Source of the DNA: a virus
Lineage: Duplodnaviria; Heunggongvirae; Uroviricota; Caudoviricetes
DNA: 64,000 nt
Reading direction: 5' to 3' (one strand)
Virus record (IMG/VR): IMGVR_UViG_2657245091_000008
Shown here in pieces: positions 27,528 to 54,057 of this stretch. The notes below the pieces were generated by a model. The model had not been told where the DNA came from and did no database searches. It saw nothing but the letters and a program-made list of their open reading frames with translations. A program made the translations under genes and the position numbers. Within the stretch, counting starts at the first letter, position 1; each line of letters begins with the position of its first letter.

Positions 27528-27907
27528 TGAGGCATATATCACCGGAAGAACTTATTGCGCTTCATGATGCGAATATAAGCCGCTACGGCGGCCTGCCGGG
27601 AATGTCAGATCCGGGTAGGGCAGAGGCCATTATCGGGAGAGTTCAGGCCAGAGTTGCCTACGAAGAGATCACCGACCTTTTCGAAGTCTCCGCAACCTAC
27701 CTGGTGGCTACTGCGAGAGGGCATATATTCAATGATGCCAATAAGCGTACCGCGCTAAACAGTGCGCTGCTATTTCTACGCCGTAACGGTATACAGGTAT
27801 ATGATTCTCCCGTGCTGGTGGAACTTGCGGTGGGGGCTGCAACTGGTGAAATCCCCGTATCTTCAGTAGCGGAAAAACTACGTGAACTATATGGTTCCAA
27901 TATTTGA
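27527..27907 (+). CDS. doc: Doc toxin (death-on-curing, Fic fold)
   Basis: [39 protein letters not shown]...[23 protein letters not shown] matches P1 Doc; ATGA overlap with phd. Confidence 0.9.
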
Positions 27908-27936
27908 AAAGAAGCCCGCTCAACCAGGCGGGCTTC
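27903..27936 (-). terminator. Intrinsic terminator ending the 31822-to-27943 minus-strand operon
   Basis: On minus strand GAAGCCCGC-loop-GCGGGCTTC followed by TTTTCAAAT. Confidence 0.55.
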
Positions 27937-27942
27937 CTACTA

Positions 27943-29049
27943 TCACTCAATGATTTTTTCTGCTGTCAGCCAGCTAATTTCTTGCCTGTCTTTCGGCGGT
28001 TTTAGCATGTGGGCGTATTCAGCAACATTCTCCCACGGAATTGTTTTTGCCCACTCAACGATAGCATTGTGATCTGCAGTGAAGAGTGGAATGGTGTGCG
28101 ATTTCAACCACTCCAATGTTGTAACGCCATGTTTTTTGGCGTGGTGCTGTGCATGATGCCGGGCTATCACTCGTAATGGCATTATCCATTCACTACCATC
28201 AGGCATCGAAAAGCGCATTGTCTTCGGCATATCTGATTCAAGAACAGCCTCCCTAATACCAGGAAACTCACCAAGAACCATACGACGGTAGTAATCGCTG
28301 TTTTTACCACCATATATTTCTGCAATGTTATCAAGATAACCTTGAGAAATAATGGGGGTATCTTCTGCGTTCAGCTTGATGGCTGTATAAATACCACATG
28401 GATTTTCTTCTGATTTAGCACGACCATGATGGGAATCGTAAAAGTGTCCATGCTCCTCCTCTGAAGGAGCGGACATTAAAAGTATACGTGAATCGTCACT
28501 TACTAACGATGCTCTTAACATGCTGAATAGCCGATCGCCAGCAAGAGCCGCCTCCGTAACAATGATTAAAAGATGTTCAGCATAATATCCACCGAAACCT
28601 TCCTCATAATTTCGGTGATATGGCTTAATTTCGCAGCCCCAATATTCCCGGTAACGATGATTGATGCCGTTTCCATCGACTTTAAAATATTCTCCCAGCA
28701 ATGGGATTCTGTTACTGACTCTATCCCAATACGTACTTATGTATTGGATAACTTGCCTGCGACAATTATAGAACTTTGGGGAAACAATAACCGTTTTAGA
28801 CTCAGGCATCAGGATTGTATAAAGAATACTAATTATAGCGATAACCGTCTTTTGGCCTATCCCTTCAGGAGTGGTGACGCTGACTGCTGAACCTTTTTGT
28901 TGAATCGCCTCAACAATTAGCTTTTGCTGGTGGGTTAACTTAACACCCATCAACTCTTCTGCTGCTAATGCCCAGTCATGGCTATATTTGCTTACCAGCT
29001 CTCTCCACTCTGGTAATTCGGTGATGTTTTTAGGCGTCAGCATCAGCAT
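27943..29049 (-). CDS. Terminase-large-subunit (PacB) ATPase-domain paralog, degenerate, no nuclease domain
   Basis: Aligns with the PacB ATPase domain encoded at 34384-35892 (HQQKLIVEAIQQKGS...; FYDSHHGRAKSEENPCGIYTAI vs FYDSHHSQAKTPDNPKGIWTAI); Walker A becomes EGIGQKT, Walker B LDE becomes VTE; 368 aa vs 502 aa. Confidence 0.6.
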   Translation of the reverse strand: MLMLTPKNITELPEWRELVSKYSHDWALAAEELMGVKLTHQQKLIVEAIQQKGSAVSVTTPEGIGQKTVIAIISILYTILMPESKTVIVSPKFYNCRRQVIQYISTYWDRVSNRIPLLGEYFKVDGNGINHRYREYWGCEIKPYHRNYEEGFGGYYAEHLLIIVTEAALAGDRLFSMLRASLVSDDSRILLMSAPSEEEHGHFYDSHHGRAKSEENPCGIYTAIKLNAEDTPIISQGYLDNIAEIYGGKNSDYYRRMVLGEFPGIREAVLESDMPKTMRFSMPDGSEWIMPLRVIARHHAQHHAKKHGVTTLEWLKSHTIPLFTADHNAIVEWAKTIPWENVAEYAHMLKPPKDRQEISWLTAEKIIE

Positions 29050-29836
29050 CCTCCGCTACCTCTGCCTCCACATCTGCCGCGACTTCATCGGACTGTTCTT
29101 CTTTGGCCTGTTCTGCAATCGCCGCACGGCATTTGGCCCTTGCTGTGGCGATTGCTTCAGCACGCACATCATCAGGAATCGTTGACGTGATATACATATC
29201 CAGTTCTTCGGCGCGGAACACTGTTTGGTCCAGATATTCGCGTAGCATCCAGGTAAATTCGAAATCACACGCGATAATCTCTGCGCTACCTTCTGCACCA
29301 TTTGGGAAATGAATAAATGCCTGTTTAGCCAAACCGATAACACGACATGCGGTTGCCAAAACAGCGACAACCAGATTTACATTTTCACACGCTACGGGCT
29401 GATTAACGCCGGAGATTACTCCATTTAACTGTCGGTTATATGGAAGGTAGTTTGAGATGCGTTCTACGCGCCATGTGCCAGTCAGGCTGCCATTTTTAAA
29501 GATAATTGGTGTAACGGATAGCCCAAGCTCGCGTATAAGTCGTTGCGCTATAGCAGGATCATTAAACAGGTCTAATGCTACACATTCGAAAGACTGCGCA
29601 AGGGCAAACAGTTCTTCCAGAGAGTAGTCTTTGCCCCTGGCGGTGATGTAACGACGAACGCCGCTGTCTGCATCACTCCATATAGCTACGCCATGCTCTT
29701 CATTCAGTTCTTCATTAAAGCCGAGATACGTCATGATAGTGCGTTCAATCGTGTCAAACGGCAGTGACATGTCGGCGTTAACAGCCACCAGCAGGCCATT
29801 ACGCAAGCGGTATTGAATTGTTTTGGTGCTTTCCAT
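29030..29836 (-). CDS. Hypothetical protein with acidic C-terminal tail
   Basis: 268-aa ORF in same operon; C-terminal Asp/Glu/Ala-rich tail. Confidence 0.5.
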   Translation of the reverse strand: MESTKTIQYRLRNGLLVAVNADMSLPFDTIERTIMTYLGFNEELNEEHGVAIWSDADSGVRRYITARGKDYSLEELFALAQSFECVALDLFNDPAIAQRLIRELGLSVTPIIFKNGSLTGTWRVERISNYLPYNRQLNGVISGVNQPVACENVNLVVAVLATACRVIGLAKQAFIHFPNGAEGSAEIIACDFEFTWMLREYLDQTVFRAEELDMYITSTIPDDVRAEAIATARAKCRAAIAEQAKEEQSDEVAADVEAEVAEDADADA

Positions 29837-29842
29837 GTCAAA

Positions 29843-30499
29843 TTACTCCACTACAAACCAGTCACATGCCAGTAAATCAGCAACAGACGGCAACCAAACG
29901 TTGTCTATATTTTGCGCATCCTTCAATACAAAATGGTCGCCATAAGGAACCTGAATGTCGTGGAAATTGACGCACCCAGCTAGAACTAACCAGCAGCATT
30001 GCTTTTCGCCTTTCCACCCGCGTCGAGATACCTTTCTTCCTTCTTTCAACCACGTCAGCGCGACAGAAAAGTCGGCTGCTTCAAGGTCGATTTCTTCTTG
30101 TTGGGTAGTGATACCACCAGCAGAAATAGTTACGTCCCTGGCTGTAATGAATGTCACCCCATTGTGACCTTCAATCCTGAGCGATACCCCATTTTCGAAG
30201 ATGTCGTTAGTTCGACTAAAGCCATCTTTAAATTTCTTTTCTGATAAACAGGACAGATGACCTTCTTCATCAACGACAAGATAGCCGCCAACTTGTGGTA
30301 GGTGTTTTTGCAAAAACATTGCATCAACATAGATTCTTACTCCTTTGGGTTCTGTGACCTCGATTTCACCACAATTAGGCATCACAGGAGTAATACCACC
30401 GATGTATTTGATATTCTTGATTTTCGATGCACTAACGTTTTTGTGAGCTTTGTATTTGGGAAGGAACTTAAAAAGCTCTTTCGTTGCCATGTTATTCAT
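29843..30499 (-). CDS. Hypothetical protein with C-terminal DUF2829 (Tad2-like) domain
   Basis: C-terminus ALTWLKEGRKVSRRGWKGEK...VWLPSVADLLACDWFVVE fits the DUF2829 pattern as I recall it. Confidence 0.5.
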   Translation of the reverse strand: MNNMATKELFKFLPKYKAHKNVSASKIKNIKYIGGITPVMPNCGEIEVTEPKGVRIYVDAMFLQKHLPQVGGYLVVDEEGHLSCLSEKKFKDGFSRTNDIFENGVSLRIEGHNGVTFITARDVTISAGGITTQQEEIDLEAADFSVALTWLKEGRKVSRRGWKGEKQCCWLVLAGCVNFHDIQVPYGDHFVLKDAQNIDNVWLPSVADLLACDWFVVE

Positions 30500-30513
30500 A
30501 GTCTTTTCTCTGC

Positions 30514-31008
30514 TTATAACTTTTCGTACTGAAGCGGTGAACGCTTAATTTCAAAGTGGCCTTCCGATGTGCTACCAAAGCCACCAGCACCACGTTCCGT
30601 TTCGTTGAGTTCCTCAACCTCGACTAGTGAGACTTGTTCAACACGCTCAAAAATGCCTTGCATGACAGCCATTCCAGGCTTGAGACAAACGCCTTCCCCG
30701 CCGGGATCAGTAATCAGTTTTGCCATGATTTCACCGCGATAATCGGAGTCGATAATTCCTACGCAGTTAGCCAGGCGAGTATGTTTTTTGCAGCCCAATC
30801 CGGATCGCGGATAGAGTTTCAGACACCAGCCGGGCGGGATCTCCATAGCCAGTCCGGTATACACCCACCAGCTTGAGGAAATTGCACCATTGCTATCGAC
30901 GCATGGTTTTATTTCAACAGCCTCAAAATCCATCGCCGCCGATCCGGAGGTGGCATAAGCTGGAAGTTTTGCTGCCGGATGTAGGCGTTTCACTTTTACG
31001 TAAATCAT
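30514..31008 (-). CDS. dut: dUTP diphosphatase (trimeric dUTPase)
   Basis: dUTPase motifs: GSAAMD, PRSG, GIIDSDYRGEI, RGAGGFGST. Confidence 0.8.
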   Translation of the reverse strand: MIYVKVKRLHPAAKLPAYATSGSAAMDFEAVEIKPCVDSNGAISSSWWVYTGLAMEIPPGWCLKLYPRSGLGCKKHTRLANCVGIIDSDYRGEIMAKLITDPGGEGVCLKPGMAVMQGIFERVEQVSLVEVEELNETERGAGGFGSTSEGHFEIKRSPLQYEKL

Positions 31009-31481
31009 TGTTTTTTAGCTCTCTGCGTGAAGGTGTAAACCCGACGTTTGATATGTGGAACGGTAGGAACAGGAAGACAGGAACTTTCAATAACTCCTTG
31101 CTCCTCCAGCGATCGCACCGCCCGCAAGAACTGCGACGTGTCGCCGCCAAACTGGCGGGCATAGGTGCTGCCGTTATGAAGTATTTGAGCTATTACCCGA
31201 GCTTTTGTCTGGCTGACACGATATGCGAATAGCCGCACGGCCTCTTCTGGCGCAATCGCTAACTGATAGCCTTTCCCGGCACGGTGTCGAATGAATCCAT
31301 GCGCCAGTAGGTTTTTGAGTTCGTTACGAGTGCGAACAGATCCGTAATCCAGGAAGTGTGGATTGATAACGACTGGCTTAAACCATTCCGTAGGTGCTTT
31401 AGCTAATAGAGCTAACAGCTTCCCGGATAATTCTGGATAGGAAGACGGGTAACAATTCAGAGATGGGTAATAAGTTTTCAC
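31005..31481 (-). CDS. Hypothetical protein
   Basis: 158-aa ORF, overlapping stop/start in operon. Confidence 0.5.
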   Translation of the reverse strand: MKTYYPSLNCYPSSYPELSGKLLALLAKAPTEWFKPVVINPHFLDYGSVRTRNELKNLLAHGFIRHRAGKGYQLAIAPEEAVRLFAYRVSQTKARVIAQILHNGSTYARQFGGDTSQFLRAVRSLEEQGVIESSCLPVPTVPHIKRRVYTFTQRAKKQ

Positions 31482-31822
31482 CGACGCCCCCTTGCAGGAT
31501 ATCGACCTGCATTAGTATCCGGTGCAATAAAGCCGGTAGTGGGGCGAGTGAAAGCGAGATTAATCTTCTCGACCATAGTGCGATAATTTTCCTGATAGTG
31601 GGCCAGGAGTTTTTCGGCGGCAATGATGGTTACTTTCCGGACGTAGCTTTCTGCTTCCTCCAGATTTCGCCAGTTTTTTTCGAGGGTAAACACAGGGACG
31701 GCCTCAAGCCCGGTCATGATGCCGAACACAACGACAGCATGACTGTTCTTAACACCAGCGGCGAAGGTTACGGTGTAACCATCCACCTTGAAGCGTCTTG
31801 ATTCCGTGATTTGACTCTGCAA
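31478..31822 (-). CDS. Hypothetical protein (first gene of operon)
   Basis: 114-aa ORF; operator-like motif about 55 bp upstream. Confidence 0.5.
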   Translation of the reverse strand: MQSQITESRRFKVDGYTVTFAAGVKNSHAVVVFGIMTGLEAVPVFTLEKNWRNLEEAESYVRKVTIIAAEKLLAHYQENYRTMVEKINLAFTRPTTGFIAPDTNAGRYPARGRR

Positions 31823-31876
31823 AGCACCCTCCTAAATAGGCGAGGGTACTTTACAGCAAAGGCGTTAATCTAAAAA

Positions 31877-31897
31877 GATGTGTTAGAAATTTAATTT
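31877..31897. promoter_or_regulatory. Operator-like motif upstream of the 31822-to-27943 operon
   Basis: GATGTGTTAGAAATTTAATTT. Confidence 0.45.
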
Positions 31898-32924
31898 ACG
31901 AATCCATCAGGCGGCTATTAGCCCCCACAGACACGCCGCCACGGCGAAGATACCGCATAAGTGTTTCCGGTTTCTTCCAGGTTCCTTCCTGCATGATCTC
32001 CACCATAGACACCTGCTTTTCAGCCATATCAATAGCGGCCCCGACGCGTGCACTATGCCCGGTCCACGTCCGGTATCTTCCTTTGTTTGGCGTAGCATCT
32101 CTTTTATTCAGCAACACCCAGGCGTCGCTGAATATTTTCTCCATTGCAGGTGCAGTAAGGGGTGTTGTCGTGATCCTGGCCTTATTGCTACGGTGTATCG
32201 GCGGGAACAGCACTGCGTCAGGATGTTCGCGAAGCCCGGAAACATCCAGCCAGTCATTCAGCACAGCGGTAGTGCGACGGGAAAGCACCTTATCAAGCCC
32301 GGCGGCGGTCGTTATTGTCTTCGTGTGTGAAATATGTAGCGTGACAGTGTCACCTGTTTGATCCAGATCTCCTACACGAATACGCGAGATTTCCGACATA
32401 CGCATCAGCGTATTGTATGCAACAAAGAGAAAAGCCCGGTTGCGCAGGTCCACCAGCCGTTCTGACCTGGACAACAGGACGTCGAGCAGTTTCAGATCGT
32501 CCCACCGAAGCGGTATAGCCTGGCCTGTTCGTTCGCCTTTTTCAGTTGCCGCTTCGCGCCGGATGCGCCGCATAGCCAGAGAAACACTTTTATCATCCGA
32601 AAGTGGCGGAAGACCACAATGCGAAAGCAGCATGTTCAGCATGGCGTAGTGCTTATCAATGGTGGTCGAAGCCAGATCGGCATCATGCAGCTGAAGAAAA
32701 TACTCGCGGGCCATTTCTGGTGAGATCGGAAACCAGGCAAGCTGGCGAGCGTGACACCAGCGCGCCCAGGAATGAAACACCAACCGGAGGTCGCGCAGAG
32801 TATTCGGCGCATAAGCCCCCTGGTCATTCATGAACCGCATAAAGTTTTCTGCGGCTTCCTGGTACTCTTTGCCAATGTTGCGCAGAAAACCACCGGAACT
32901 GCCAGAGATAATTAATTCACTCAT
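31896..32924 (-). CDS. cre: Cre-like tyrosine site-specific recombinase
   Basis: Collinear similarity to P1 Cre (SWARWCHARQLAWFPISPE, VSLAMRRIRRE, AYNTLMRMSEISRIRVGDL, WTGHSARVGAAIDMA); R-H-R-Y-type catalytic residues present; divergent, not identical. Confidence 0.85.
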   Translation of the reverse strand: MSELIISGSSGGFLRNIGKEYQEAAENFMRFMNDQGAYAPNTLRDLRLVFHSWARWCHARQLAWFPISPEMAREYFLQLHDADLASTTIDKHYAMLNMLLSHCGLPPLSDDKSVSLAMRRIRREAATEKGERTGQAIPLRWDDLKLLDVLLSRSERLVDLRNRAFLFVAYNTLMRMSEISRIRVGDLDQTGDTVTLHISHTKTITTAAGLDKVLSRRTTAVLNDWLDVSGLREHPDAVLFPPIHRSNKARITTTPLTAPAMEKIFSDAWVLLNKRDATPNKGRYRTWTGHSARVGAAIDMAEKQVSMVEIMQEGTWKKPETLMRYLRRGGVSVGANSRLMDS

Positions 32925-33076
32925 GAAACTATTTGACCTCTATATACAGATGACGCTACGCGAAAAATATAAAAATGACAGGGTAGCTATAAGTTAATTT
33001 TCAAAATACAAGCCTTTGATTCGAGGCACGTATTTTCAGTGATGTCAACACTGTTCATCTACACATGATTATAGCC

Positions 33077-33108
33077 TAACTTTAAATAATGCCAATTATT
33101 TAAAGTTA
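33077..33108. other. lox-like recombination site candidate
   Basis: TAACTTTAAATAAT-GCCA-ATTATTTAAAGTTA, perfect 14-bp inverted arms (or 12-bp arms with 8-bp spacer ATGCCAAT); arms share TAACTT and ATA with loxP arm ATAACTTCGTATA; about 150 bp upstream of cre-like start. Confidence 0.5.
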
Positions 33109-33285
33109 CAGAATGGCGATTTTTTTTAATCCATCATAGATTGATTTTGACCAGTAACACGTTGCCTTCATGGTCTTTAATTTGCGAAGTGTGGTTTATA
33201 CAGTTGGTTTTCTAAAATTGATGACAAAAAATCACAGTTCGATCCTTTACTCACTCTGTTATTCGACATAAATTTGTCATAGTAA

Positions 33286-33307
33286 TTTTATGTTAGAAAA
33301 CTAAATC
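33286..33307. promoter_or_regulatory. Operator-like motif upstream of 33319 gene
   Basis: TTTTATGTTAGAAAACTAAATC. Confidence 0.45.
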
Positions 33308-33318
33308 GAGTAGGAATA

Positions 33319-34356
33319 ATGAGTAAGAAGTCGATCGAGAAAGAGTACAAACGGTTCCTGCAAACCGCTGAACGGTGGAAAGAGCTGGTGGTCGCAAACT
33401 CTGTTTTCCATGATACCAGTTATGCTGGCGAGGAATTCCGCCATGTTGCATTAACGCATGACCAAAACATATTAGAAGAAGCTGAAAAATGTCTTGCTGA
33501 ATGGAAAGCCTTCGTTGACATGTGCCGCGATGCCGACGGCAAAGCGTCGAACATTGTTGAGTCTGTATATTCTCCGATCCCATTCATCATTGAGGACACC
33601 AATCAAAGCACGCATGTTGTTGTGCAAAGCGCTACAACAACACGTACATTTACACGTGAACAATTGCTCAAAAAATACGACAAAATCATAAAGAAAAGCC
33701 TGAAAAATAGGGTTTTTTCTCAAATTGTAGGTGCTCTTGAAGAAGAACAGCGCTTCTTTGAAGCTGAGCCTGAAGGCGAGATCTACCGGGCGCGTAAAGA
33801 GGCATATACAGATGTTGTGCTGACAACAAACATCGAAGGCAGCAATGCCCTTTCTCGCTTTAGAGTTGGCGCACATGGCGCATTGGTTTTCGCAAGACTA
33901 CCGAAGACAACGATCCCCGTTGTCAATAATGTTGGTGAACGCCGGAGCATTACAATTTATTCAGGCGTCGAATCGGTACCTTGCAGCCTTCTCGGCGATT
34001 TTAACTTATATCGTGTTCGTGACCTGGAAAAACACCAGCCAAGCTACGTTGCGAAGTCGTACATCTTAAGGAACATCGATATTCGCAATGAAAGCCTTAA
34101 GCAGAAATCCGCTAAGATGCTGGAGGATGCCGATCCGGCTATTCGCCATATCATTGAGCGTAAGATACGTACATCACGTGAAGCAATGGCAAGGCTGGAT
34201 AAAATGGATCTGGAATTGTTAGACGTAATGATGGCCTCTGGAGACGACCTGACCGGCATTAAACTGAATGAAGCTCGTAAAAAATACGGCAAAGCAATCG
34301 AAGAACGTTACGGATACACATTCCCCCAAACGCAGTACGCCGCGAAGCTCTGGTAA
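33319..34356 (+). CDS. Hypothetical protein occupying the c1-like position (convergent with pacB)
   Basis: 345-aa ORF; operator-like motif overlaps its promoter region; no HTH recognised. Confidence 0.5.
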   Translation: MSKKSIEKEYKRFLQTAERWKELVVANSVFHDTSYAGEEFRHVALTHDQNILEEAEKCLAEWKAFVDMCRDADGKASNIVESVYSPIPFIIEDTNQSTHVVVQSATTTRTFTREQLLKKYDKIIKKSLKNRVFSQIVGALEEEQRFFEAEPEGEIYRARKEAYTDVVLTTNIEGSNALSRFRVGAHGALVFARLPKTTIPVVNNVGERRSITIYSGVESVPCSLLGDFNLYRVRDLEKHQPSYVAKSYILRNIDIRNESLKQKSAKMLEDADPAIRHIIERKIRTSREAMARLDKMDLELLDVMMASGDDLTGIKLNEARKKYGKAIEERYGYTFPQTQYAAKLW

Positions 34357-34364
34357 TCACAACC

Positions 34365-34390
34365 GGCCCCGCATCGCGGGGCTTTATATA
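34365..34390 (+). terminator. Intrinsic terminator after 33319-34356
   Basis: GGCCCCGC-ATC-GCGGGGC followed by TTTATATAT. Confidence 0.5.
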
Positions 34391-35892
34391 TCCAGATCTG
34401 GCATTTCGATATCCGCCAGAACCTGATCTCGGAAAGTTGCCATTTCGGCACCAATATCTTCATTAGCAGGCACATAGTCCACCAGCATAGTGAAGCAGTA
34501 GGTATCCCATCGGTCAGGCGATTTGATGTTTAGCTTTTGCCGCATGTGCTCTTTGCGCATCATCGCCATTTTCCCTTCCTCATTCAGTAAAAAGGGGATT
34601 TTTGACGCTTGCTCTGCCGTTTTAGGGTCACTGTCTATCCGCATACGCCCTGACTTTATGGCATCACGCGCCATAATATTTGCGTAGGCACGCTGATTAA
34701 CAAATCGCTCCCTGTCTTTGTTCGCAAACATGGGTTTTCCCCACCGAATACGTACCGGGTTCGCACCACGACGCACCAACTGCGCACACGTATCAGAACC
34801 AAAACCATCGGCATCAACCGCGATTGTTATATTCGGGTATTTTTCCGGCGTACATTCGTTATATATAAAGTCAGCAAAGGCCAATGGGTCCATAGTGCCA
34901 GGCATCTCCATTACCTTAAAGTTAACAACGCGCCGCTTATCCCTGTGACCAGATACCTTGCAGATGTTGAGGACCGACTTATCTCGCCCATTACCAACGT
35001 CAGCCGTTGCCACCCATCCCCAGTTTTTCTCCAACAACACCTTGCGGCGAGCAGCGCGATCGCATTCATCACGACCAAGCAAATAGCCGTTAATTTCTCG
35101 TGGGAACTGACCAAGCACCTTGACCATATACTCAATAGAATCGCGCCCACCATATTCCAGAAGCTTCTGCTTGATGAATTGTGGTGTGACGAACGGTGAT
35201 TCTTCCGAGTTAAGAACAATTGCTGTCCAGATCCCTTTCGGGTTGTCTGGGGTTTTTGCTTGAGAATGGTGCGAATCGTAGAAATAACCACTTGGCCTTG
35301 TTGGCTGGGATAGCATCAACATCCGGTTATCTTCTTCAGTAAGAGCACCGGTCATTACGCCGATCGCCTTATCAGATATACCAGATGCTTCATCCAGAAT
35401 TAGAAGCAAATGTGCCGCGTGTTCCCCCGCCAGCGCTTCTTCGTTGCCGAGTCGATAACCTTTGCAGAGAACTTCCCAAATCCCCTTACGGGAGCGCTCA
35501 TAAAACATGGTGTCAGAGAGGACAAAATAGGTCTGCAACCACCCATGACGCTTAACTGCATTCGCCCAATACTGTTTAACGTATTTGAATACGCCTGTTT
35601 TTACCTGGCCTATCTTGTTAGCAACAATGATGACACGGGCATCGGGGAACAGGATCATAAAAATCAACAGCAACATCGCGGTAAGGGACGACTTCCCCGT
35701 TCCGTGTCCGGACGTGACGGTCGTCCTACTCCCCGTTTCCTGCACTGACTGAATGATCTGCTGCTGCTGGTGGGAGGGGAACATCCCAAAAATATCGACA
35801 ACAGCCTGGGTAAAGTTGTAGCGGTATTTGATTACCATATCGCGCCAGCGTGGATCGCTGGTGACGCATTTAATCTTGCGCCCGCCAGCCAT
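34384..35892 (-). CDS. pacB: Terminase large subunit (PacB-like)
   Basis: 502 aa; Walker A VTSGHGTGKSS, Walker B LLLILDEAS, C-terminal acidic nuclease-like residues; directly follows pacA-like gene. Confidence 0.8.
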   Translation of the reverse strand: MAGGRKIKCVTSDPRWRDMVIKYRYNFTQAVVDIFGMFPSHQQQQIIQSVQETGSRTTVTSGHGTGKSSLTAMLLLIFMILFPDARVIIVANKIGQVKTGVFKYVKQYWANAVKRHGWLQTYFVLSDTMFYERSRKGIWEVLCKGYRLGNEEALAGEHAAHLLLILDEASGISDKAIGVMTGALTEEDNRMLMLSQPTRPSGYFYDSHHSQAKTPDNPKGIWTAIVLNSEESPFVTPQFIKQKLLEYGGRDSIEYMVKVLGQFPREINGYLLGRDECDRAARRKVLLEKNWGWVATADVGNGRDKSVLNICKVSGHRDKRRVVNFKVMEMPGTMDPLAFADFIYNECTPEKYPNITIAVDADGFGSDTCAQLVRRGANPVRIRWGKPMFANKDRERFVNQRAYANIMARDAIKSGRMRIDSDPKTAEQASKIPFLLNEEGKMAMMRKEHMRQKLNIKSPDRWDTYCFTMLVDYVPANEDIGAEMATFRDQVLADIEMPDLDI

Positions 35893-37256
35893 TAATCATC
35901 CTCCGGCGGTTCTATCGCGATATCATCATCTCCGGCGTCATACCCTGCATCAGATGCATCATAATCACCGTAAATTTCAGCCGTTGCCGAAGGGTCAATA
36001 TCCAGCTCTTCGTCGTTGGCCTCGAATTCTCCAGCTTTACGCTCGCCATTGCGGTCGTAATCTCCGCACCCCAATTCTTCAACAATGGTTGCCACATCCG
36101 CCCGGCGCTCTGCCAGCCATTGCGGATGGTTAGCCTGAAGCGTTGCAAACTCCCTTGCCTCTTTGTCCAGCTGTTCATCATCAACATCATTGACGTCAGA
36201 AACAGGTGGTTCGAGAAGAGTGATAGCTTTCGCCGCGCGCGCCGCGAGGATAGCCGGGACGCTGACCCCCTGGCGCTCGATGTATTCAGCAACACCGATA
36301 TCATCCAGTTCCTCGCGCTCACGCATACGTATAGCGGCGGCGATAACTCTGGCAGCGCGTGCGTCAGCGCCAATGCGATATTCAATCTCTTTGCCACGCT
36401 GTTCGGCCTGTAGGCGTGCTAATTCGAGTTTTTCTCTGGCCTCAGCCTCTTTGAATGCTTGCTGGCGAGCGCTCTGACGAAGCTTTTCATCCCCCTGTCG
36501 CAGCTTTTGTTCGGACTGATATATAGCTGCCAACCTACTGATAAAATCATTCATGTAGTAGGCCGCGTCACTGATTAGACCGAGAAGGCGCTGCCCAGGG
36601 TGCATTCCTTCTGGCTCTTTATCGCCCAAGGCGTCTATTTCCGCCTGTAGACGTTCGGCCTCCTGATCAACAATGCTTTGATACTGAAGTGCGCGCTCTT
36701 GCGCCATTTGAATTGCTAACCGCAGGTGTTCTTCTGCGCCGTTCTTCATCATATCGCGAGCCACATTCGTAGTGGGCAATGTGGCACGCTGCACAGCACC
36801 GCCAGGGATCATTGCTGAAGATCCCTCAATTTTTGGGGCGCTTTTATCTTCTTCGGGGATCATTTTCGCCATTTTTTCGCGCAATGATCTCCTGACAGAT
36901 TCTTTTATCTCATTGTTATTATTGGTATTACTTTCATGATCCGAAGTTTTCTTTCTTGGCATACTTCGGAAAGAACCTGCACCCTGCGAATTGTCAATTT
37001 CTGTAAATTTTGTTTTTTCTGCACCCTCTTCCAGCTTTTTTGTTGCTCTTCCCGCCCGTTTTTTTTCAGGTGATTTGGTGCTTTTTTTTGTTGTCTTTAC
37101 CTGCGACCGCACCTCATTTTTTTTCATATTGAGATGCTTTCTGGCTGTATTGAAGCTAAGACCATGCTCCTCACAGTATTCCTTTACAGTGATCCCTTTT
37201 TCTTCACGCAACGCTATAAAGCGGGCGCGGTGCTCCTCCCAATTAACCAGACTCAT
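35892..37256 (-). CDS. pacA: Terminase small/pac-recognition subunit (PacA-like)
   Basis: 454 aa; N-terminal HTH-like region, highly acidic C-terminus; GATC-rich pac-like cluster inside 5' part; ATGA coupling with lpa-like gene upstream. Confidence 0.7.
   Translation of the reverse strand: MSLVNWEEHRARFIALREEKGITVKEYCEEHGLSFNTARKHLNMKKNEVRSQVKTTKKSTKSPEKKRAGRATKKLEEGAEKTKFTEIDNSQGAGSFRSMPRKKTSDHESNTNNNNEIKESVRRSLREKMAKMIPEEDKSAPKIEGSSAMIPGGAVQRATLPTTNVARDMMKNGAEEHLRLAIQMAQERALQYQSIVDQEAERLQAEIDALGDKEPEGMHPGQRLLGLISDAAYYMNDFISRLAAIYQSEQKLRQGDEKLRQSARQQAFKEAEAREKLELARLQAEQRGKEIEYRIGADARAARVIAAAIRMREREELDDIGVAEYIERQGVSVPAILAARAAKAITLLEPPVSDVNDVDDEQLDKEAREFATLQANHPQWLAERRADVATIVEELGCGDYDRNGERKAGEFEANDEELDIDPSATAEIYGDYDASDAGYDAGDDDIAIEPPEDD
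36800..36945. other. pac-like packaging site candidate (cluster of GATC-containing hexamers)
   Basis: Five GATC within about 140 bp (36807, 36820, 36858, 36886, 36938), four in TGATC(C/T) hexamers, inside the 5' region of pacA as in P1. Confidence 0.4.
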
Positions 37257-37645
37257 AAAGCAACACCACGCTTTTTAACGGCGGCATTCCACAGCTTATT
37301 CGCCATGTCCACCAGCTCTCGTTGCTCTTTTCGCGCCTGTTCGACTGATTTCCTGCTACAGTTTTTAACCAGTAAGCTACCGTATTCAGGCGTGCGCCCG
37401 CGCACCTTGAACTGATATCCGTTCAGACCATGTAGCCAGTATTTTCGTGGATACACACGATCATCCAGCTCACAGATTGCCCTGCTTGAACGAACAAAAT
37501 GACGAATGATGTTAGTTACACTTACTCGTGAAACATGGAGATGAGGGTATTTTTCTTTGGCGAGAGTGGTAATTTCAGTGACTGTCAGATAGCAGTCAGC
37601 CCTGATCATGATATCCGCAATTTCTGCGCTGCTGATTTGTTCCAT
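37253..37645 (-). CDS. Lpa-like late promoter activator (by position upstream of pacA)
   Basis: 130-aa ORF immediately upstream of and overlapping pacA; operator-like motif upstream; assignment by synteny only. Confidence 0.45.
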   Translation of the reverse strand: MEQISSAEIADIMIRADCYLTVTEITTLAKEKYPHLHVSRVSVTNIIRHFVRSSRAICELDDRVYPRKYWLHGLNGYQFKVRGRTPEYGSLLVKNCSRKSVEQARKEQRELVDMANKLWNAAVKKRGVAL

Positions 37646-37718
37646 TAATCCCCCGGGCAGGAAATGACCGAGGGGATGATAATGAGAATGTTAAAACTGT
37701 ATAGACTGGTAAAAAGAT

Positions 37719-37740
37719 GATTGTATTAGAAAATTAATAT
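37719..37740. promoter_or_regulatory. Operator-like motif upstream of lpa-like gene
   Basis: GATTGTATTAGAAAATTAATAT. Confidence 0.45.
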
Positions 37741-37753
37741 TAAACACCTAATG

Positions 37754-38146
37754 CTACCAGCGAGACAAACGAACAACATGTTTCACTTTTGCGATCCACT
37801 TTCCGCGATAACTATTGATTACGGCCTGTGCCAGCTTCAAATTGGCTTCAAAATCAGCCTTACTACCATCAGACTCCACCAGCATTCCTCCATCTATTTC
37901 TGGTAAACATAGATAATCCTGCTCAACCTGCAGCGGCATTGATGGCTCTCTGAATGGCGTTACTTGCTCTGCTTTCCAGCGAAATCTAACCCTCATCCCC
38001 CTGGTGGTCATTACTAGATAGCCTGTTATAGTGCTTTTATGGCCCACATCAGTACGCGTGGCATTGCATGACACGATCTTACAGTTAGCGATAGACCACT
38101 CCATATTGGTGGCCTGTTGAGTGCTTAATTTGGTAGTCCCGTACAT
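37754..38146 (-). CDS. Hypothetical protein
   Basis: 130-aa ORF, ATGA overlap with upstream gene. Confidence 0.45.
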   Translation of the reverse strand: MYGTTKLSTQQATNMEWSIANCKIVSCNATRTDVGHKSTITGYLVMTTRGMRVRFRWKAEQVTPFREPSMPLQVEQDYLCLPEIDGGMLVESDGSKADFEANLKLAQAVINSYRGKWIAKVKHVVRLSRW

Positions 38147-38721
38147 CAGAAAGCCTCCCAGTCAGTCGCGATAATATCCACACCAGTTGCAAACCAGTCT
38201 GTCTGCGCCTGTAAATCCCCATTCATCATTACCAGGCGAGGCATCACCATCACATCGCACCCTTCCACAATATCGAATGCCTCTTCCGGCAAGAATTCGA
38301 AGAGCTTTTCTTTGCTGCCAATGCTGCCACGGAACATCGATATATAGCTCCCTTTAGGCCATGATGTCCGCCGGGCATCAAGCCCTTTCATCATCCAGTA
38401 AAAAGCCGAGGAAAAAGGGATATTCTTTTTGCCAATGATTACATTATTCGCTTCTGTGTACTTCAGGAACTTAACTAACCTTACCATTGACTCGGATAAC
38501 GCAACGTATGGCTCATGATTGATTGCTGACACGCTTACACCGTGCAATCCAACGCTTACCACTGTCATATCGCCGCTCTGTGCGGTTTCGATATTGACGC
38601 CTTTGCGAACTAATGAGGCGTAAAGTTCCTCTCGCTTTTGGGTCCAGCGTTCCCGCTTCCCTATGAAGTCACTCAAAATGAGATCTTCTTCTGCATATGC
38701 GTTATCGTTCGCCATTAACAT
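38146..38721 (-). CDS. Hypothetical protein with C-terminal DUF2829 (Tad2-like) domain
   Basis: C-terminus FYWMMKGLDARRTSWPKGSYISM...MPRLVMMNGDLQAQTDWFATGVDIIATDWEAF fits the DUF2829 pattern. Confidence 0.45.
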   Translation of the reverse strand: MLMANDNAYAEEDLILSDFIGKRERWTQKREELYASLVRKGVNIETAQSGDMTVVSVGLHGVSVSAINHEPYVALSESMVRLVKFLKYTEANNVIIGKKNIPFSSAFYWMMKGLDARRTSWPKGSYISMFRGSIGSKEKLFEFLPEEAFDIVEGCDVMVMPRLVMMNGDLQAQTDWFATGVDIIATDWEAF

Positions 38722-39175
38722 AACGTCTCCTTTTTTACGCGCGCGACTATCCCCCGGAAGTACCGGTAGTGATGTCGTAACTTCGTATTAATTAAGGGGT
38801 ACAGCCTGAGCGGCTATATGATGAATTGAAAGGAGTTGTGGCGGTGGTGCCTCCACCTGCCAGGTTAGCCACTCCTGGCGACGTCACTTATCAGAACGTA
38901 GTGAATGAAAATGGCTTCGTCACGAGCGCATAGCCGCAATTACCACAACGGAAACGGCGCTCGCATTAATTAAACGCCTTTTCCTGTTGTGCGCCGTACT
39001 CTTCCGGCTGTCACACCGAATCGCCAGGATGGTGAGTCCCTGAGTCCGCTATCCCTCCAGCGGTGACTTGCACATTCCGGCTACCTGATGTGCCCATGCA
39101 GTGTTAGTAAGGTACCTAACAGCTACACCAGACCGCTAACGACGCATGTGCCATACGTCGTGTTACAACCAAATA

Positions 39176-39251
39176 TGGTGGCCCCTACCGGATTTGAACC
39201 GGTGACCGTGCGATTATGAGTCGCCTGCTCTAACCACTGAGCTAAAGGGCC
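39176..39251 (-). tRNA. tRNA-Ile2 (anticodon CAU, ileX-like; elongator Met not excluded)
   Basis: GGCCCTTTAGCTCAGTGGTTAGAGCAGGCGACTCATAATCGCACGGTCACCGGTTCAAATCCGGTAGGGGCCACCA; canonical cloverleaf, near-identical anticodon arm to E. coli ileX. Confidence 0.8.
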
Positions 39252-39388
39252 AGATTACTGTTAATTCCGCTTACGCTTTTTGCCAGAACCGCGTAAGGCT
39301 TTTGCCGCTTGCTCGACCCCATATGCAACCACCAGCAAAAATAAAAATGTCCAACCAGGGTTCTTATCGGCAAACGCCCAAAAATTCA

Positions 39389-39712
39389 TCACTTACAGCC
39401 ACCTTGCATTTCCTCGGATAATTCATTGATTTTAGTGCTCAATAAGTAATCAAAGTAAAGATAAAACACAAAAGTAACGATAGTGCTTAAAGTGTCTGAA
39501 ATTGCGTATTTCAGCTCAGGAAGCATGACAAAGCAGACAAATAGCGGAAGAAATAACTGCACTATGCACAGGCTCTCCTTCCACAACCATCTATATCTGA
39601 AGTCTGACAACAAAAACTCCATTGCTTGAAACTTTATTAGATTGCGGTGCCTGGTGCCTCCAGGTGACGTTAACCAGTTAACAATTAACGCCGGGATGTT
39701 TGACTTAACCAC
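39389..39712 (-). CDS. Hypothetical small membrane protein
   Basis: 107-aa AT-rich ORF between tRNA genes, hydrophobic. Confidence 0.3.
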   Translation of the reverse strand: MVKSNIPALIVNWLTSPGGTRHRNLIKFQAMEFLLSDFRYRWLWKESLCIVQLFLPLFVCFVMLPELKYAISDTLSTIVTFVFYLYFDYLLSTKINELSEEMQGGCK

Positions 39713-39872
39713 TAAGGAGGATTGTTTTAACTGTTCCGCGTGCGCTTAGCCGCATTCACCGCAATGGTAAGAGCACTTGGCTGGCTGGGCGGCGATGACG
39801 CCTGTACGCATTTGGTGATCCGGTTCTGCTTCCGGCATTCGCTTAATTAGCCAAATACTCTTAACGTTGCGC

Positions 39873-39959
39873 TGGCGGAGAGTAATGGAATCGAACCATC
39901 ATCGCTTGCGCAATGGGACGGTTTTCAAGACCGCTTGAGCACCATGCTCCCTACTCTCC
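39873..39959 (-). tRNA. tRNA-Ser-like (anticodon UGA), type II with atypical D-arm
   Basis: Acceptor GGAGAGT/ACTCTCC+GCCA, anticodon arm CGGTCTTGAAAACCG as in E. coli tRNA-Ser(UGA), long variable arm, T-loop GGTTCGATTCC; D-arm non-canonical. Confidence 0.55.
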
Positions 39960-40323
39960 CGTTATTGTGGCGACCGGTGCTGATCTCCGGCTTGCGGTTA
40001 TTTCAGACTCTCACGGGCGTTTAATTGCCCCGCCGAACAGCTCTTTTCCGCAATAGCTGCAATGTCTTTCGCGCATCAGCCTGCGCATTCACCACAATGT
40101 TGAGAACACTGGTTGTCACGCTGCAACGCAACATTTATTCGTAGATTGGGATATGACCCCGTTACGCCAGTGTTCTCAACGTTGTAGTGCCGGTTACGGT
40201 TCCGGCCAGGCCTCTTCCTCAACGGGGTGTTCTCCATACGGACTACCGTTTATTGGTCGTTCCTGCGGTTTATGTTGTGAAGCCAGATGCTTATCTTCTG
40301 GTTGCTTCAAAGAGCTGCACTTC

Positions 40324-40412
40324 CTCACAACGGTAAGGGTACTTCGTAGGGATTCGAACCCTCTGCCAAGCTCGGCGATCTCCGACGTCGCAAAATACCC
40401 TTACCTGTTGTG
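40324..40412 (-). pseudogene. tRNA-like remnant (acceptor, D-arm and T-arm but no anticodon arm)
   Basis: T-loop signature AGGGTTCGAATCCCT and pairing acceptor-like stem, only about 65 nt core, enclosed by a 16-bp extended stem. Confidence 0.3.
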
Positions 40413-40413
40413 C

Positions 40414-40489
40414 TGGTGCCGATTAACGGACTCGAACCGCTGACCATTCGCTTACAAAGCGACTGCTCTACCAACTGAGCTAAATCGGC
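40414..40489 (-). tRNA. tRNA-Thr (anticodon UGU)
   Basis: GCCGATTTAGCTCAGTTGGTAGAGCAGTCGCTTTGTAAGCGAATGGTCAGCGGTTCGAGTCCGTTAATCGGCACCA; canonical cloverleaf. Confidence 0.8.
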
Positions 40490-40493
40490 AATT

Positions 40494-40580
40494 TGGTGGG
40501 GAGTGATGGAGTCGAACCACCCGAGTCGCAATGACAGTAGATTTACAGTCTACCCCGCTACCCCTACGGACTAACTCCCC
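40494..40580 (-). tRNA. tRNA-Tyr-like (anticodon GUA), type II with atypical D-arm
   Basis: Acceptor GGGGAGT/ACTCCCC+ACCA, anticodon arm GTAGACTGTAAATCTAC, long variable arm, T-loop GGTTCGACTCC. Confidence 0.55.
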
Positions 40581-40585
40581 TAAAG

Positions 40586-40662
40586 TGGCGATGGTGGGTG
40601 GATTCGAACCACCGACCGACAGCTTAGAAGGCTGCTGCTCTATCCTACTGAGCTACACCATC
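40586..40662 (-). tRNA. tRNA-Arg (anticodon UCU)
   Basis: GATGGTGTAGCTCAGTAGGATAGAGCAGCAGCCTTCTAAGCTGTCGGTCGGTGGTTCGAATCCACCCACCATCGCCA; perfect acceptor, D and T stems. Confidence 0.8.
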
Positions 40663-41883
40663 ACTTGCCGGGTACGTCTCCGGCGAGGGCTTCCACCTCC
40701 GTATGCTTTTCGGCGCACCGCGCCCTGGCTGCAATTCGGTAACAGGGGATGCATAACCCTGGCTTCCAGCGTGATTAGCGCCTTCAGCATGACGGGATAT
40801 ACCCGTTACAAGAAATTCCCCCAGGATGCCATTAAGCAATGGCTGTTACGCGGGAGGGACGTAACAGGTAAGGGCGCTGACCAGAAAGACCTGACCCTTC
40901 TCATTCATCTGGTTAATCACACCAGCGCCCTTGCCTGTTATGCCTCCCCGTTCCCTAATACACAGACGGGGACACTCTGCGGTCGATTTTTTGACGGGGG
41001 ACGACTCATACCCCGTGGCGTCTGGCTTCTTAGGCCGCTACCATCATCAGATCATCGTTTGCATTTACTTTAATGGTCGGTTTCTAAACCGCCGCAAAGT
41101 CGCTAACCATGACGAAAACCCTAAAAAAGCCCACCCGAAGATGGGCAAATACGCTACATCTCACACAAGAAAGAAGCCGACTGCCTGAGCTGGATTCACT
41201 TTCAAATGCCCGCAGAAAGGGATCACAAGTCGGCTTCTTTCTTGATGCGGCACTCTCTCCGCCCGTCACCGCTCTGTCTCGGTTGTCGCGTTTGCCACGC
41301 CAGCCGTAACGAGGTTTAAAGTCTTTGCACGTTTCCATCACTCGACTGCCGTCTGTGGCTGTTCGTTGCAGCGGGGGTGCCTCCCCCTGGGGATATCCCC
41401 GGCCTTACCCCATTCTTTCAAGACACAATGCAAGGCCACATCCGCATAGGTGCATTACCGCAACATTAAGGAGACTCAGGGCAAAAGGTAACCGCCACAA
41501 AAATCCCTATGCCTCCTTAATGTTGAAGATGTGCATTGATGATTAGATGCAGCATGTACTGTTACTCTCTGCCGGACCATCATCAATGAACACCTTAAAA
41601 AGACCTTCCGTGGCTCAACATGTATTGTCGTTTACTCCGCAAAGTGCTCTCTCTGAAACCACTTTCCGCACTAAACCTGTTGAACTTTGGTCAGCTCGGT
41701 GCCAAAGCGTGCTTTTGCTTTACTATACTTTTCTAACACTTTAATTTGTTAACAGCCGGTGGGCAAACAATAACCAATAAGTGACTATCAAGCCCAGCAA
41801 GCGAAACGTGGGTGCCGCCCACCAGCAAGGAAAATTCTATGTTAAGTTATCATCACAATCAATACATTCGAATTGTGATTTTA

Positions 41884-53729: not shown

Positions 53730-54057
53730 AGTTACGGCCTCACTAACAGGTTTAACAACCTGCCACCCGCTGTCAAACAGGTGGCAGGACGTGACAGGGT
53801 TGACAGACTGGCGTTAGTGAAACCAGCAGGCCGAAGCCTCCCCATCACGCCCCACCATAATTCGGGCGTAACGCGGTTTACGGACACAAAAATACCGCAA
53901 TATCGGAAATCTGCGGTTGTCCGCACTAACATTCAGGCTGTCAAACCCGGTCGCAGAATTTGCTACGACGGCATGAATATAAGCCTGAAAACATGGAAGA
54001 TCAACTAAAAATTTCAGCAATGGATGACTTCAGTCGATGATGCAGATCATACATTCC

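Follow-up and report, generated by a model that had tools for sequence, protein, structure and literature searches.

The tRNA regions of the phage-plasmids P1, P7 and D6 are the closest described counterparts of the locus studied here. According to the P1 record the corresponding stretch is the C1-controlled ban operon, in which promoter/operator, a dicF-like region, tRNA-Asn, tRNA-Thr, tciABC, tRNA-Ile2 and ban follow one another on one strand, and the P7 record describes its tRNA genes as regulated by the C1-controlled ban operator. We analyzed a stretch of viral DNA of 64,000 nucleotides (Caudoviricetes; IMG/VR record IMGVR_UViG_2657245091_000008), hereafter called the window, and in particular its array of five tRNA genes at 39176-40662 on the minus strand, together with a sixth, tRNA-like element (TLE) located between two of them. 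The replicon is a P1-like phage-plasmid: the 1.65 kb around the array share 99.9% identity with a plasmid of 95 kb from E. coli O45:H2 FWSEC0003, all five tRNAs are annotated in the 99.9%-identical RefSeq plasmid NZ_CP031917.1, and P1, P7, D6 and RCS47 match the 1.65-kb region piecewise with 91-95% identity. Among 5,426 complete E. coli genomes only 12 contain the five-tRNA arrangement of the window across 80% or more of its length. Operon, strand and flanking sequence are the same as in the P1/P7/D6 region, and tRNA-Thr and tRNA-Ile2 are common to both. The P1 set is trnA-Asn, trnT-Thr and trnI-Ile2, whereas in the window tRNA-Arg(UCU) and tRNA-Tyr(GUA) replace tRNA-Asn and tRNA-Ser(UGA) is added. 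The array is a variant of the known P1 tRNA set.

A conserved tRNA-like element without an anticodon arm

The element starts one base past the CCA of tRNA-Thr and was characterised by fold, conservation, covariation and a covariance model (CM).

40326-40412, minus strand: tRNA-like element (TLE), 87 nt, core at 40346-40391

Its sequence, divided by structural part, is CACAAC-A-GGUAAGGGUAUUUUG / CGA-CGUCGGAGA-UCG / C-GAGCUUGGCAG / AGGG-UUCGAAU-CCCU / A / CGAAGUACCCUUACC-GUUGUG. A stem of about 21 pairs with one bulged A closes a three-way junction formed with a D-like hairpin (GCGA-CGUCGGAGA-UCGC) and a T-like hairpin (AGGG-UUCGAAU-CCCU), and a linker of 8-11 nt takes the place of the anticodon arm. 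A preliminary description of this DNA, made from its letters alone, had reported acceptor, D and T features, no anticodon arm and an extended stem of 16 bp; this was accurate, the stem measuring about 21 bp in our analysis. The folding support that it had regarded as critical for this element is also present, in the covariation and CM score given below and in a predicted fold of -42.6 kcal/mol (z = -4.8) that none of 200 shuffles equalled in stability. TLE does not qualify as a tRNA because it has neither an anticodon arm nor a free acceptor end and its acceptor-like helix runs to about 21 bp. ARAGORN did not call it, and no Rfam family, including tRNA and Y RNA, matched it even at E <= 10. 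Credible matches to Y RNAs, tmRNA or ribozymes were likewise absent.

Copies at least 95% identical to TLE are present in 473 E. coli records, where 466 of 475 places are on plasmids, and in 488 plasmids of PLSDB; they are unannotated. In P1, D6 and SJ46 the element is 99% identical, and in P7 the arms are kept and the interior is replaced. Pairing of the stem was assessed on 26 distinct TLE sequences, an earlier set of 12 having given the same picture. In the larger set 92% of cells are paired (sliding the partner column lowers this to 53.5% or less), both sides have changed in 13 of the 21 stem pairs, and none of 500 shuffles attained the covariation score; in the smaller set 94% of cells are paired and 10 of 21 pairs have changed on both sides. 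The copy on contig L088 has a wholly different stem sequence that is still paired. One stem pair is U-G in 20 of the 26 sequences, and the CM gives the TLE of the window 106.7 bits on the minus strand versus 20.1 on the plus strand. The U-G pair and the strand asymmetry of the CM indicate, therefore, that selection acts on the fold of the RNA read from the tRNA strand.

The D-like and T-like hairpins are nearly invariant, which is partly an artefact as our searches used exact patterns from inside the core. Blastn at lower stringency returned no diverged TLE cores. Two Klebsiella phages with a match of about 74% were considered as carriers of a diverged core and rejected, the frame alone being common and the interior another one. 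When GTDB species representatives were scanned with the T-arm pattern we obtained two loci, one of which is probably a true tRNA or unrelated. A candidate promoter inside TLE (TTGGCA-15 nt-TACGAA) was also rejected: it is not conserved among variants and the promoter scan was empty there.

The preliminary description had called the element a remnant and had suggested, among other explanations, an old attachment-site footprint. If TLE were a decayed tRNA pseudogene or such a footprint with no present function, the tRNA-derived look of its two hairpins would be explained, as would its T-loop UUCGAAU, which is the tRNA consensus, and the existence of real phage tRNAs with the same T-arm. However, a remnant would not be expected to be conserved at 95% or more in about 470-490 plasmids, nor to occur in unrelated phages with compensatory changes in its stem or, as in L088, with a different stem that still pairs. 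The extended stem is moreover a family trait, common to many hairpins that are not tRNA-like (see below), and a search of the 5,426 E. coli genomes, within its sensitivity, matched no host tRNA gene. Already contradicted by covariation, this explanation is in our view very improbable. TLE is a conserved structured RNA, not a remnant.

In P1, TLE lies antisense within the annotated gene plp ('putative lipoprotein'; NC_005856.1, 3710-4087 of locus L002, plus strand), an open reading frame (ORF) that is also antisense to a second hairpin of the array (H-C, see below) and overlaps tRNA-Thr. In principle the plus strand of the stretch could code for the C-terminal part of the P1 lipoprotein Plp, with the RNA fold as a by-product. 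The annotation of plp over the stretch in P1 records speaks for this, as does a hypothetical ORF annotated over the TLE copy of Enterobacter phage BUCT554. The Plp translations are, however, rich in Cys, Arg and Ser and vary in length among phages (96, 83 and 125 aa), the ORF extends into the tRNA-Thr gene, RefSeq has no gene annotated over the stretch in hundreds of plasmids, an overlapping plus-strand ORF of 180 aa has no Pfam match, and the substitutions preserve pairs, not codons. Given the junk-like, length-variable translations and the pair-preserving substitutions we rejected the coding reading, to which we assign almost no probability, and plp is probably not a real gene. In the window, an ORF at 40153-40443 (plus strand) overlaps TLE.

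Frame hairpins, their interiors and the domains that follow them

Four further hairpins of the window (H-A, H-C, H-E and H-D) have arms related to those of TLE. As these arms open with CAC, close with GUG and enclose different interiors, we call them frame hairpins. They are listed here with the spacer and the STnc100-like domains that lie between them.

40845-40955, minus strand: frame hairpin H-A, upstream of the Arg-Tyr-Thr cluster; 27-nt arms, 81% complementary; -53.4 kcal/mol, z = -4.9
40190-40325, minus strand: spacer RNA after TLE, ending in a GCCGGA...CCGGC hairpin; from sequence
40093-40189, minus strand: frame hairpin H-C, 23-bp stem, interior not tRNA-like; inverted repeat 91% complementary; -51.4 kcal/mol, z = -6.2
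39960-40095, minus strand: STnc100-like domain C, 3' end abutting tRNA-Ser; from sequence
39757-39870, minus strand: frame hairpin H-E, directly past the CCA of tRNA-Ser; from sequence; CM R1 20.8 bits
39643-39763, minus strand: STnc100-like domain E; Rfam RF02076 39.4 bits, gathering score 47, E = 2e-6
38944-38994, minus strand: short frame hairpin H-D (CACAACAGGAAAA...UUUCCGUUGUG); direct repeats D4, D7 and D18; z = -2.05, weak

H-A is kept in P1, where its arms are CACAACAGGUAAGGGCGCUG...CAGCGUCCUUUCCUGUUGCG, and H-D sits between tRNA-Ile2 and a Tad2-like gene. Scanning with a conserved 25-mer from the 3' flank of the frame identified at least 120 viral contigs. Among the matches listed, a closing stem of at least 12 bp ending exactly at ...GUG is present in 104 of 116 distinct upstream sequences, and the interiors fall into 68 clusters. 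In the same matches a T-arm-like hairpin (4 bp + G-UUCRANN-C) occurs 18 times where 0.165 are expected from shuffles, an enrichment of more than 100-fold, and in at least 10 unrelated versions. The 3' arm with its flank, GUGGUGAAUGCGCAGGCUGAUGCGC, is about 100% identical in Klebsiella Taipeivirus Magnus, Swiduovirus swi2 and Erwinia phage Gungnir39, and arms that are identical in nine elements enclose a different interior, of 32-98 nt, in each. TLE is one type of cargo in a large family of CAC...GUG frame hairpins. On one IMG/VR contig (L230) the frame hairpin encloses a near-complete-looking tRNA with a GCUCAGCUGGUUAGAGC D-arm, a GCAGGUUCAACUCCUGC T-arm and an expanded anticodon-arm region, its acceptor stem prolonged by CACACAC/GUGUGUG.

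The 25-mer opens a folded domain that ends in AAGCCGGAGAUCAGCACCGGC-CACCAC and whose closing helix GUGGUG/CACCAC is lengthened by covarying flanks; the 3' hairpin and CACCAC are conserved in most domain copies. Domain C is laid out as GUGGUGAAU, hairpin GCGCAGGCUGAUGCGC, AAGCCGGAGAUCAGCACCGG and CGCCAC. Tested against RF02076, domain E scored below gathering (39.4 versus 47 bits) and domain C gave no match. Copies at least 95% identical to domain C are found at 715 chromosomal places in the 5,426 E. coli genomes, all unannotated. In UTI89 (L257 3501-3632) the domain belongs to a prophage, in which it comes after the gene for the repressor and is followed closely by an intrinsic terminator and then by yfdP-yfdR. 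The leader that precedes this UTI89 copy is homologous to about 39000-39175 of the window, downstream of tRNA-Ile2.

Several of these elements are placed at the very ends of tRNA genes. H-E starts one base past the CCA of tRNA-Ser, as TLE does after tRNA-Thr, and the 3' end of the domain directly meets a tRNA gene at its 5' end, this gene being tRNA-Ser in the window and tRNA-Arg in one Klebsiella phage. In another, lambdoid Klebsiella phage the order is Q, four tRNAs, frame hairpin with domain, and holin, and in Gungnir39 and swi2 a gene annotated as tRNA-Met (CAU) lies 250-330 nt downstream of the module on the same strand. The sequence past tRNA-Ser of the coliphage phita32 is homologous to the interior of H-E, with a closing stem that differs and is compensated. 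These positions show the frame hairpins at the borders of tRNA and small-RNA (sRNA) units in what would be long untranslated phage transcripts. Genes for HNH homing endonucleases (HNH_3, with or without AP2) adjoin copies of frame hairpins or TLE at L098 2413-2925, L014 1663-2790 and L137 (swi2) 186-677; the HNH domain of L014 forms a fusion with a Q-antiterminator-like protein.

The arms are also recombination points. In the commonest P1-like variant, represented by 32 viral contigs, the spacer 40190-40325 is deleted and TLE is joined directly to GAUGAAUGCGCAGGCUGAUGCGCG, the endpoints running exactly from the 3' flank of TLE to that of H-C. Hybrid elements combine arms of two types (L006 and L119). 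Inversion of the cargo between its inverted arms was considered and rejected, the matches in reverse orientation being the arms alone. It could be argued from these rearrangements that the hairpins act as DNA, the arms providing the sites or the homology for a recombination that exchanges tRNA and sRNA cassettes between phages, in the manner of integron attC sites or of co-conversion tracts beside homing endonuclease genes, with the RNA fold incidental. The exact deletion, the interior swap in P7, the hybrid arms, the nine interiors within identical arms and the HNH genes beside several copies are in line with this, and the AAC...GUU ends with a bulged base loosely resemble attC. Yet the U-G pairs and the 106.7 versus 20.1 bits point to selection on one RNA strand, and the unrelated but paired arm sequences of L088 are unexpected for a site recognised by a protein. 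The CACAAC/GUUGUG ends fit the attC pattern RYYYAAC/GTTRRRY only partly, no integrase, integron or other, was found in the TLE neighbourhood examined, and the units between the hairpins of the window are 100-600 nt of RNA genes, far below the size of gene cassettes. No inverted interior was found, and recombination at the arms is expected from homology alone. We regard an action as DNA as improbable.

An exact-pattern scan of viral contigs revealed TLE in contexts outside P1-like genomes. In lambdoid contigs it lies between the Q antiterminator gene (PF06530) and holin/lysozyme genes, just past a terminator-like hairpin; on contig L088 a full STnc100 (109.7 bits) starts about 20 nt downstream of it; and in BUCT554 (Uetakevirus) it is part of an insert between the terminase and portal genes. 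Frame hairpin and STnc100-like domain could in principle form a cis-acting antitermination or anti-Rho leader (nut, put, boxA-like), with which polymerase would cross long untranslated tRNA and sRNA arrays and read through internal terminators. Untranslated payloads do come after the modules, in the UTI89 prophage the module is preceded by the repressor gene with an operator/promoter-like region, an intrinsic terminator and the early genes coming just after it, and the 3' arm of many copies contains the boxA-like string UGCUCUUU with a small hairpin about 14 nt later, as in lambdoid nut sites. But the string is missing from the P1-type TLE arm (ACCCUUACC) and from L088, and where present it is buried in the 21-bp helix. 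The lambdoid TLE copies lie past the terminator-like hairpin, not before it, many carrier phages are not lambdoid, and HK022, the reference phage for put, has no module motif in positions 27600-40751. An antitermination role is in our opinion distinctly unlikely.

The five tRNA genes and their operon

ARAGORN identified exactly five tRNA genes in the region, all on the minus strand; the preliminary description had given the same five. The gathering scores of the Rfam models are 29 for tRNA and 47 for tRNA-Sec.

40586-40662, minus strand: tRNA-Arg(UCU), canonical; ARAGORN; Rfam tRNA 72.1 bits
40494-40580, minus strand: tRNA-Tyr(GUA), type II; ARAGORN; Rfam tRNA 41.9 bits
40414-40489, minus strand: tRNA-Thr(UGU), canonical; ARAGORN; Rfam tRNA 69.6 bits
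39873-39959, minus strand: tRNA-Ser(UGA), type II, G73, CCA; ARAGORN; Rfam tRNA-Sec 43.5 bits
39176-39251, minus strand: tRNA of Ile2 type, anticodon CAU; ARAGORN (as Met-CAT); Rfam tRNA 68.2 bits

Ile2, Thr and Arg, described earlier as regular tRNAs, score 68.2, 69.6 and 72.1 bits against the threshold of 29. The CAU gene is named tRNA-Ile in RefSeq; its P1 homologue is annotated tRNA-Ile2 and is 89% identical to E. coli ileX, and going by these annotations it resembles ileX and not elongator or initiator tRNA-Met. The tRNA-Thr is an allele other than P1 trnT, with an anticodon stem that differs from that of the common P1 allele. For tRNA-Ser the sole listing in the Rfam scan is tRNA-Sec, at 43.5 bits and thus below its gathering score, the lower match to the tRNA clan being suppressed. 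This Sec-like score arises because the D-arm is compact, with a 4-bp stem and a 5-nt loop (AUGGU). The RefSeq record of one related plasmid labels the gene 'tRNA-OTHER'. In P7 (L005, AF503408.1, 1063-1149, minus strand) ARAGORN found the same compact-D-arm tRNA-Ser(UGA), unannotated in the GenBank record. The tRNA-Tyr has two extra bases followed by a 4-bp D-stem (CCGU/GCGG) and a 7-nt loop.

The atypical D-arms of the Ser and Tyr genes noticed in the preliminary description are therefore real; the suspicion of degeneracy is not borne out. Discriminator base and long variable arm belong to the identity rules of E. coli SerRS and TyrRS, and both genes, as read from the sequence, have a long variable arm, an encoded CCA and the discriminators G73 (Ser) and A73 (Tyr). 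Pattern scans of viral contigs gave 24 distinct Ser and 22 distinct Tyr relatives, the contigs of the Tyr lineage spanning 14-175 kb. In the Ser lineage 94.8-100% of cells are paired in every stem (D-stem 94.8%), and compensatory pairs affect 3 of 4 positions in the D-stem, 4 of 7 in the acceptor, 3 of 5 in the variable arm and 2 of 5 in the T-stem. In the Tyr lineage they affect 3 of 7 in the acceptor and 2 of 5 in the anticodon stem, and in four relatives the D-stem is CUGU/GCAG in place of CCGU/GCGG. As the odd D-arms have been retained across many phages through compensatory changes, there is no sign that Ser and Tyr decay, and we treat both as probably functional and as belonging to a phage tRNA lineage. 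A D-arm that looks 'irregular' may thus be a conserved lineage trait and not a mark of decay.

Coliphages of 138-140 kb have genes about 83% identical to Ser and to the Arg-Tyr pair. The large virulent coliphages (phita32, EmilHeitz and contigs of T5 and T4 size) have the same unusual Ser and Tyr D-arms as the window. Phita32 (about 139 kb) carries Arg-UCU, Tyr-GUA, Ser-UGA, Thr-UGU and CAU plus Pro on one strand, which is the anticodon set of the window plus Pro. These clusters differ from the window in tRNA order and spacing, and TLE was not found in those compared (e.g. phita32 and EmilHeitz). Between tRNA-Ser and tRNA-Thr of phita32 (L115 1085-1183, minus strand) ARAGORN called a 'tRNA-???' of 99 nt, a further unusual tRNA-like RNA in a phage tRNA cluster. 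Its anticodon has four bases (atcc), its D-stem of 6 bp carries a loop of 4 nt, the anticodon-like loop measures 5 nt, and the extra arm is long. The five tRNAs of the window are ordinary for a P1-like phage and are already annotated. They may have been gained as cassettes from a pool common to lambdoid and large virulent coliphages, which would mean that tRNA sets are swapped among temperate phage-plasmids, lambdoid phages and large virulent phages.

To compare codon usage we counted 14,151 codons in the 43 long ORFs of the window and divided their frequencies by general values for E. coli K-12.

AGA: 3.2 times K-12
AGG: 4.1 times K-12
AUA: 2.8 times K-12
ACA: 2.1 times K-12
UCA: 1.7 times K-12
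UAU and UAC: 1.06-1.09 times K-12

Compensation of codon usage, as proposed earlier for the whole set, is plausible for four of the genes, AGA, AUA, ACA and UCA being enriched. It fails to explain tRNA-Tyr, since the Tyr codons are not. The tRNAs would mainly add decoding capacity for the codons preferred by the phage (AGA/AGG, AUA, ACA and UCA), and tRNA-Tyr is more likely to be a spare against host defences that deplete tRNAs. Phage T5 is rescued from Retron-Eco7, which depletes host tRNA-Tyr, by a phage tRNA-Tyr (PMC11555353), and PARIS and anticodon nucleases are countered by phage tRNAs (PMC11464382, PMC10264068). A nearby Tad2-like gene would fit an anti-defence neighbourhood. The gene (38146-38721, minus strand) is located about 450 nt downstream of tRNA-Ile2, and its product of 191 aa contains a Tad2-like anti-Thoeris domain (PF11195, E = 1e-9).

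The array region is probably the untranslated, tRNA-rich part of a ban-type operon on the minus strand of this P1-like phage-plasmid. On the 3' side of tRNA-Ile2 follow the Tad2-like gene, the late-promoter activator gene Lpa and pacase A; ban is absent there. The Tad2-like gene occupies the position of ban in P1, and the tRNA region may belong to a variable anti-defence island of P1-like elements. At the other end, window and P1 are nearly identical from a terminator-like site at 41129-41146 to the first tRNA and unrelated farther upstream. A perfect 17-bp inverted repeat (41166-41182 / 41228-41244, minus strand) precedes the site, which is a strong terminator-like hairpin with a T-run; the site and the sequence after it are kept in P1, near the annotated 'dicF-like region'. 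Over 41030-41245 Rfam gave just weak, sub-threshold matches to permuted tmRNA, MicA and STnc240. Two separate genes for C4 antisense RNA, scoring 76.7 and 68.8 bits, also lie in the window at a distance of about 41 kb; beside one there is an isrK-like sRNA (62.5 bits), beside the other its a1/b1 target (55.2 bits); the coordinates of these features, all on the minus strand, are 12887-12974, 13019-13097, 53777-53862 and 53930-53982. P1 is usually described as having a single immI c4 locus, and the phage-plasmid of the window may carry two C4-type immunity or antirepressor modules.

Proposed role of TLE and comparison with known systems

Structure, strand, conservation, family membership and the position of TLE at the border between tRNA and module lead us to a tentative proposal that we put somewhat below even chance: that TLE is co-transcribed with the tRNAs and is a defined unit for host RNA processing and stability. 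The transcription and cleavage of TLE, like any action in trans, are presumed here. The 'processing element' mentioned in the preliminary description remains the most plausible suggestion for its function. In this model the tRNAs alternate with modules consisting of a CAC...GUG frame hairpin, a variable interior and then an STnc100/PasD-like folded domain. The interior of TLE would be a miniature tRNA core, in which a GG-bearing D-like loop and the T-loop UUCGAAU form an elbow-like structure lacking an anticodon arm. Transcribed jointly with the tRNAs, the 21-bp helix and its elbow-like cap could be cut and folded as one unit by host enzymes, the helix by RNase III and the cap by RNase P or by enzymes that bind T-loops. 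Cleavage would free the 3' end of tRNA-Thr one base upstream and define where the downstream RNA begins, and a small RNA resistant to nucleases would be left over.

Several points weigh against this proposal. The 3' strand of TLE is base-paired and has no conserved free RCCA, and normal RNase P substrates do not include a 21-bp helix. The near-invariant core, even allowing for the exact patterns used to search for it, points to a specific partner, which generic processing does not require. No tRNA is present inside the examined loci of the lambdoid TLE copies, and release of an upstream tRNA is therefore not the general role of TLE. As to the operon, its promoter-proximal part differs from P1, with 700 nt of non-homologous sequence, and the terminator-like site at 41129-41146 stands upstream of the tRNA array. 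The P1 C1 operator consensus, taken as ATTGCTCTAATAAATTT, has no match with three mismatches or fewer across the window; this consensus may be incorrect, or else the immunity specificity of the phage is a different one. The decoding role attributed to the tRNAs depends on general host codon frequencies, not on computed ones.

A different explanation would make TLE and the other T-arm-bearing frame hairpins tRNA mimics in trans: after excision from the transcript, the helix with its elbow-like cap would be a decoy or sponge for a host factor that binds the elbow or the acceptor-T helix of tRNAs. Candidate targets are a defence nuclease directed at tRNAs, a toxin that modifies them, or RNase P, and TLE would be an RNA-based counter-defence located beside spare tRNAs and an anti-Thoeris gene. 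Several observations are consistent with it. The core is nearly invariant while the stem drifts, L088 having the same core with a different stem and flank; T-arm-like cargo is more than 100-fold enriched and comes in at least 10 unrelated versions (among the matches listed); the interiors are hypervariable, as is usual in arms-race loci; the Tad2-like gene is close by; and phage tRNAs counter Retron-Eco7, PARIS and anticodon nucleases. Nevertheless, having no anticodon arm, TLE cannot decoy anticodon nucleases, and the interiors of most frame hairpins are not tRNA-like. Furthermore, the anticodon loops of the five tRNAs are presumably the same as those of the host except for U32 in Thr, so no escape mutations are evident. 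We consider a decoy function unlikely. Even more speculative, and to be given little weight, is the broader idea that frame hairpins are a display platform for exchangeable small RNAs whose recurrent cargo, anticodon-less mimics of the tRNA elbow, acts as decoys in trans, anti-phage systems being among the targets. Conserved arms would then allow the cargo to be swapped by recombination and to be released by host enzymes that process double-stranded RNA or tRNA, and phages would possess a hypervariable RNA-based arsenal of counter-defence beside their spare tRNAs.

Whether as a processing unit, which is the role we favour, or as decoys, the frame hairpins would help to explain how long untranslated tRNA/sRNA operons of phages are matured, and they might add an RNA layer to phage counter-defence. 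As processing units they have a known parallel. The RNase III hairpins of the T7 early and late regions and of the lambda N leader are bulged helices of about 20 bp between the units of one transcript. Like the frame hairpins these sites form a family of related copies; they are, in contrast, not known to carry a tRNA-like cap or hypervariable interiors.

The domain that follows the frame is comparable to STnc100 (RF02076). STnc100 and PasD are sRNAs of prophages that bind Hfq, and a preprint (bioRxiv 10.64898/2026.05.13.724894) describes STnc100 as related to PasD and located near Q, lysis and TerB genes. In STnc100/PasD as in our domain the closing helix is UGGUG/CACCA, GGUGAAU is directly followed by a small hairpin, and a CCGG...CCGG hairpin precedes CACCA, and both occupy the same niche near Q, lysis genes and TerB. 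The copies of the window differ in ending at a tRNA and not at a terminator, and the upstream frame hairpin with its cargo is outside the Rfam model.

Neither TLE nor the frame-hairpin family matches Rfam 15, and we found no description of them in the searchable literature, including for the conserved 25-mer. The nearest structural analogues of TLE are the Y RNAs (YrlA and D. radiodurans Yrn1), the tRNA-like domain of tmRNA and mascRNA, which all combine a long helix formed by the ends with a D-like/T-like module. Membership in the Y RNA class is not indicated: the Ro-binding motif of Y RNAs, GNCGAAN0-1G (PMC4201824), is not conserved in TLE, where CUACGAAG is found in P1-type copies only and CGCAG or CCCAG elsewhere, and none of the neighbouring genes that we examined is rsr. 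YrlA is unlike TLE in its opposite arm order and in the stem that replaces its anticodon stem, TLE having no anticodon-like arm. Yrn1, on the other hand, has the D-then-T order and the long stem at the acceptor position that are seen in TLE (PMC4201824). TLE is in this sense a new conserved structured RNA whose general kind is known, and it offers an entry point to a widespread family with interchangeable, often tRNA-like interiors that bracket phage tRNA genes and domains of the STnc100/PasD type.

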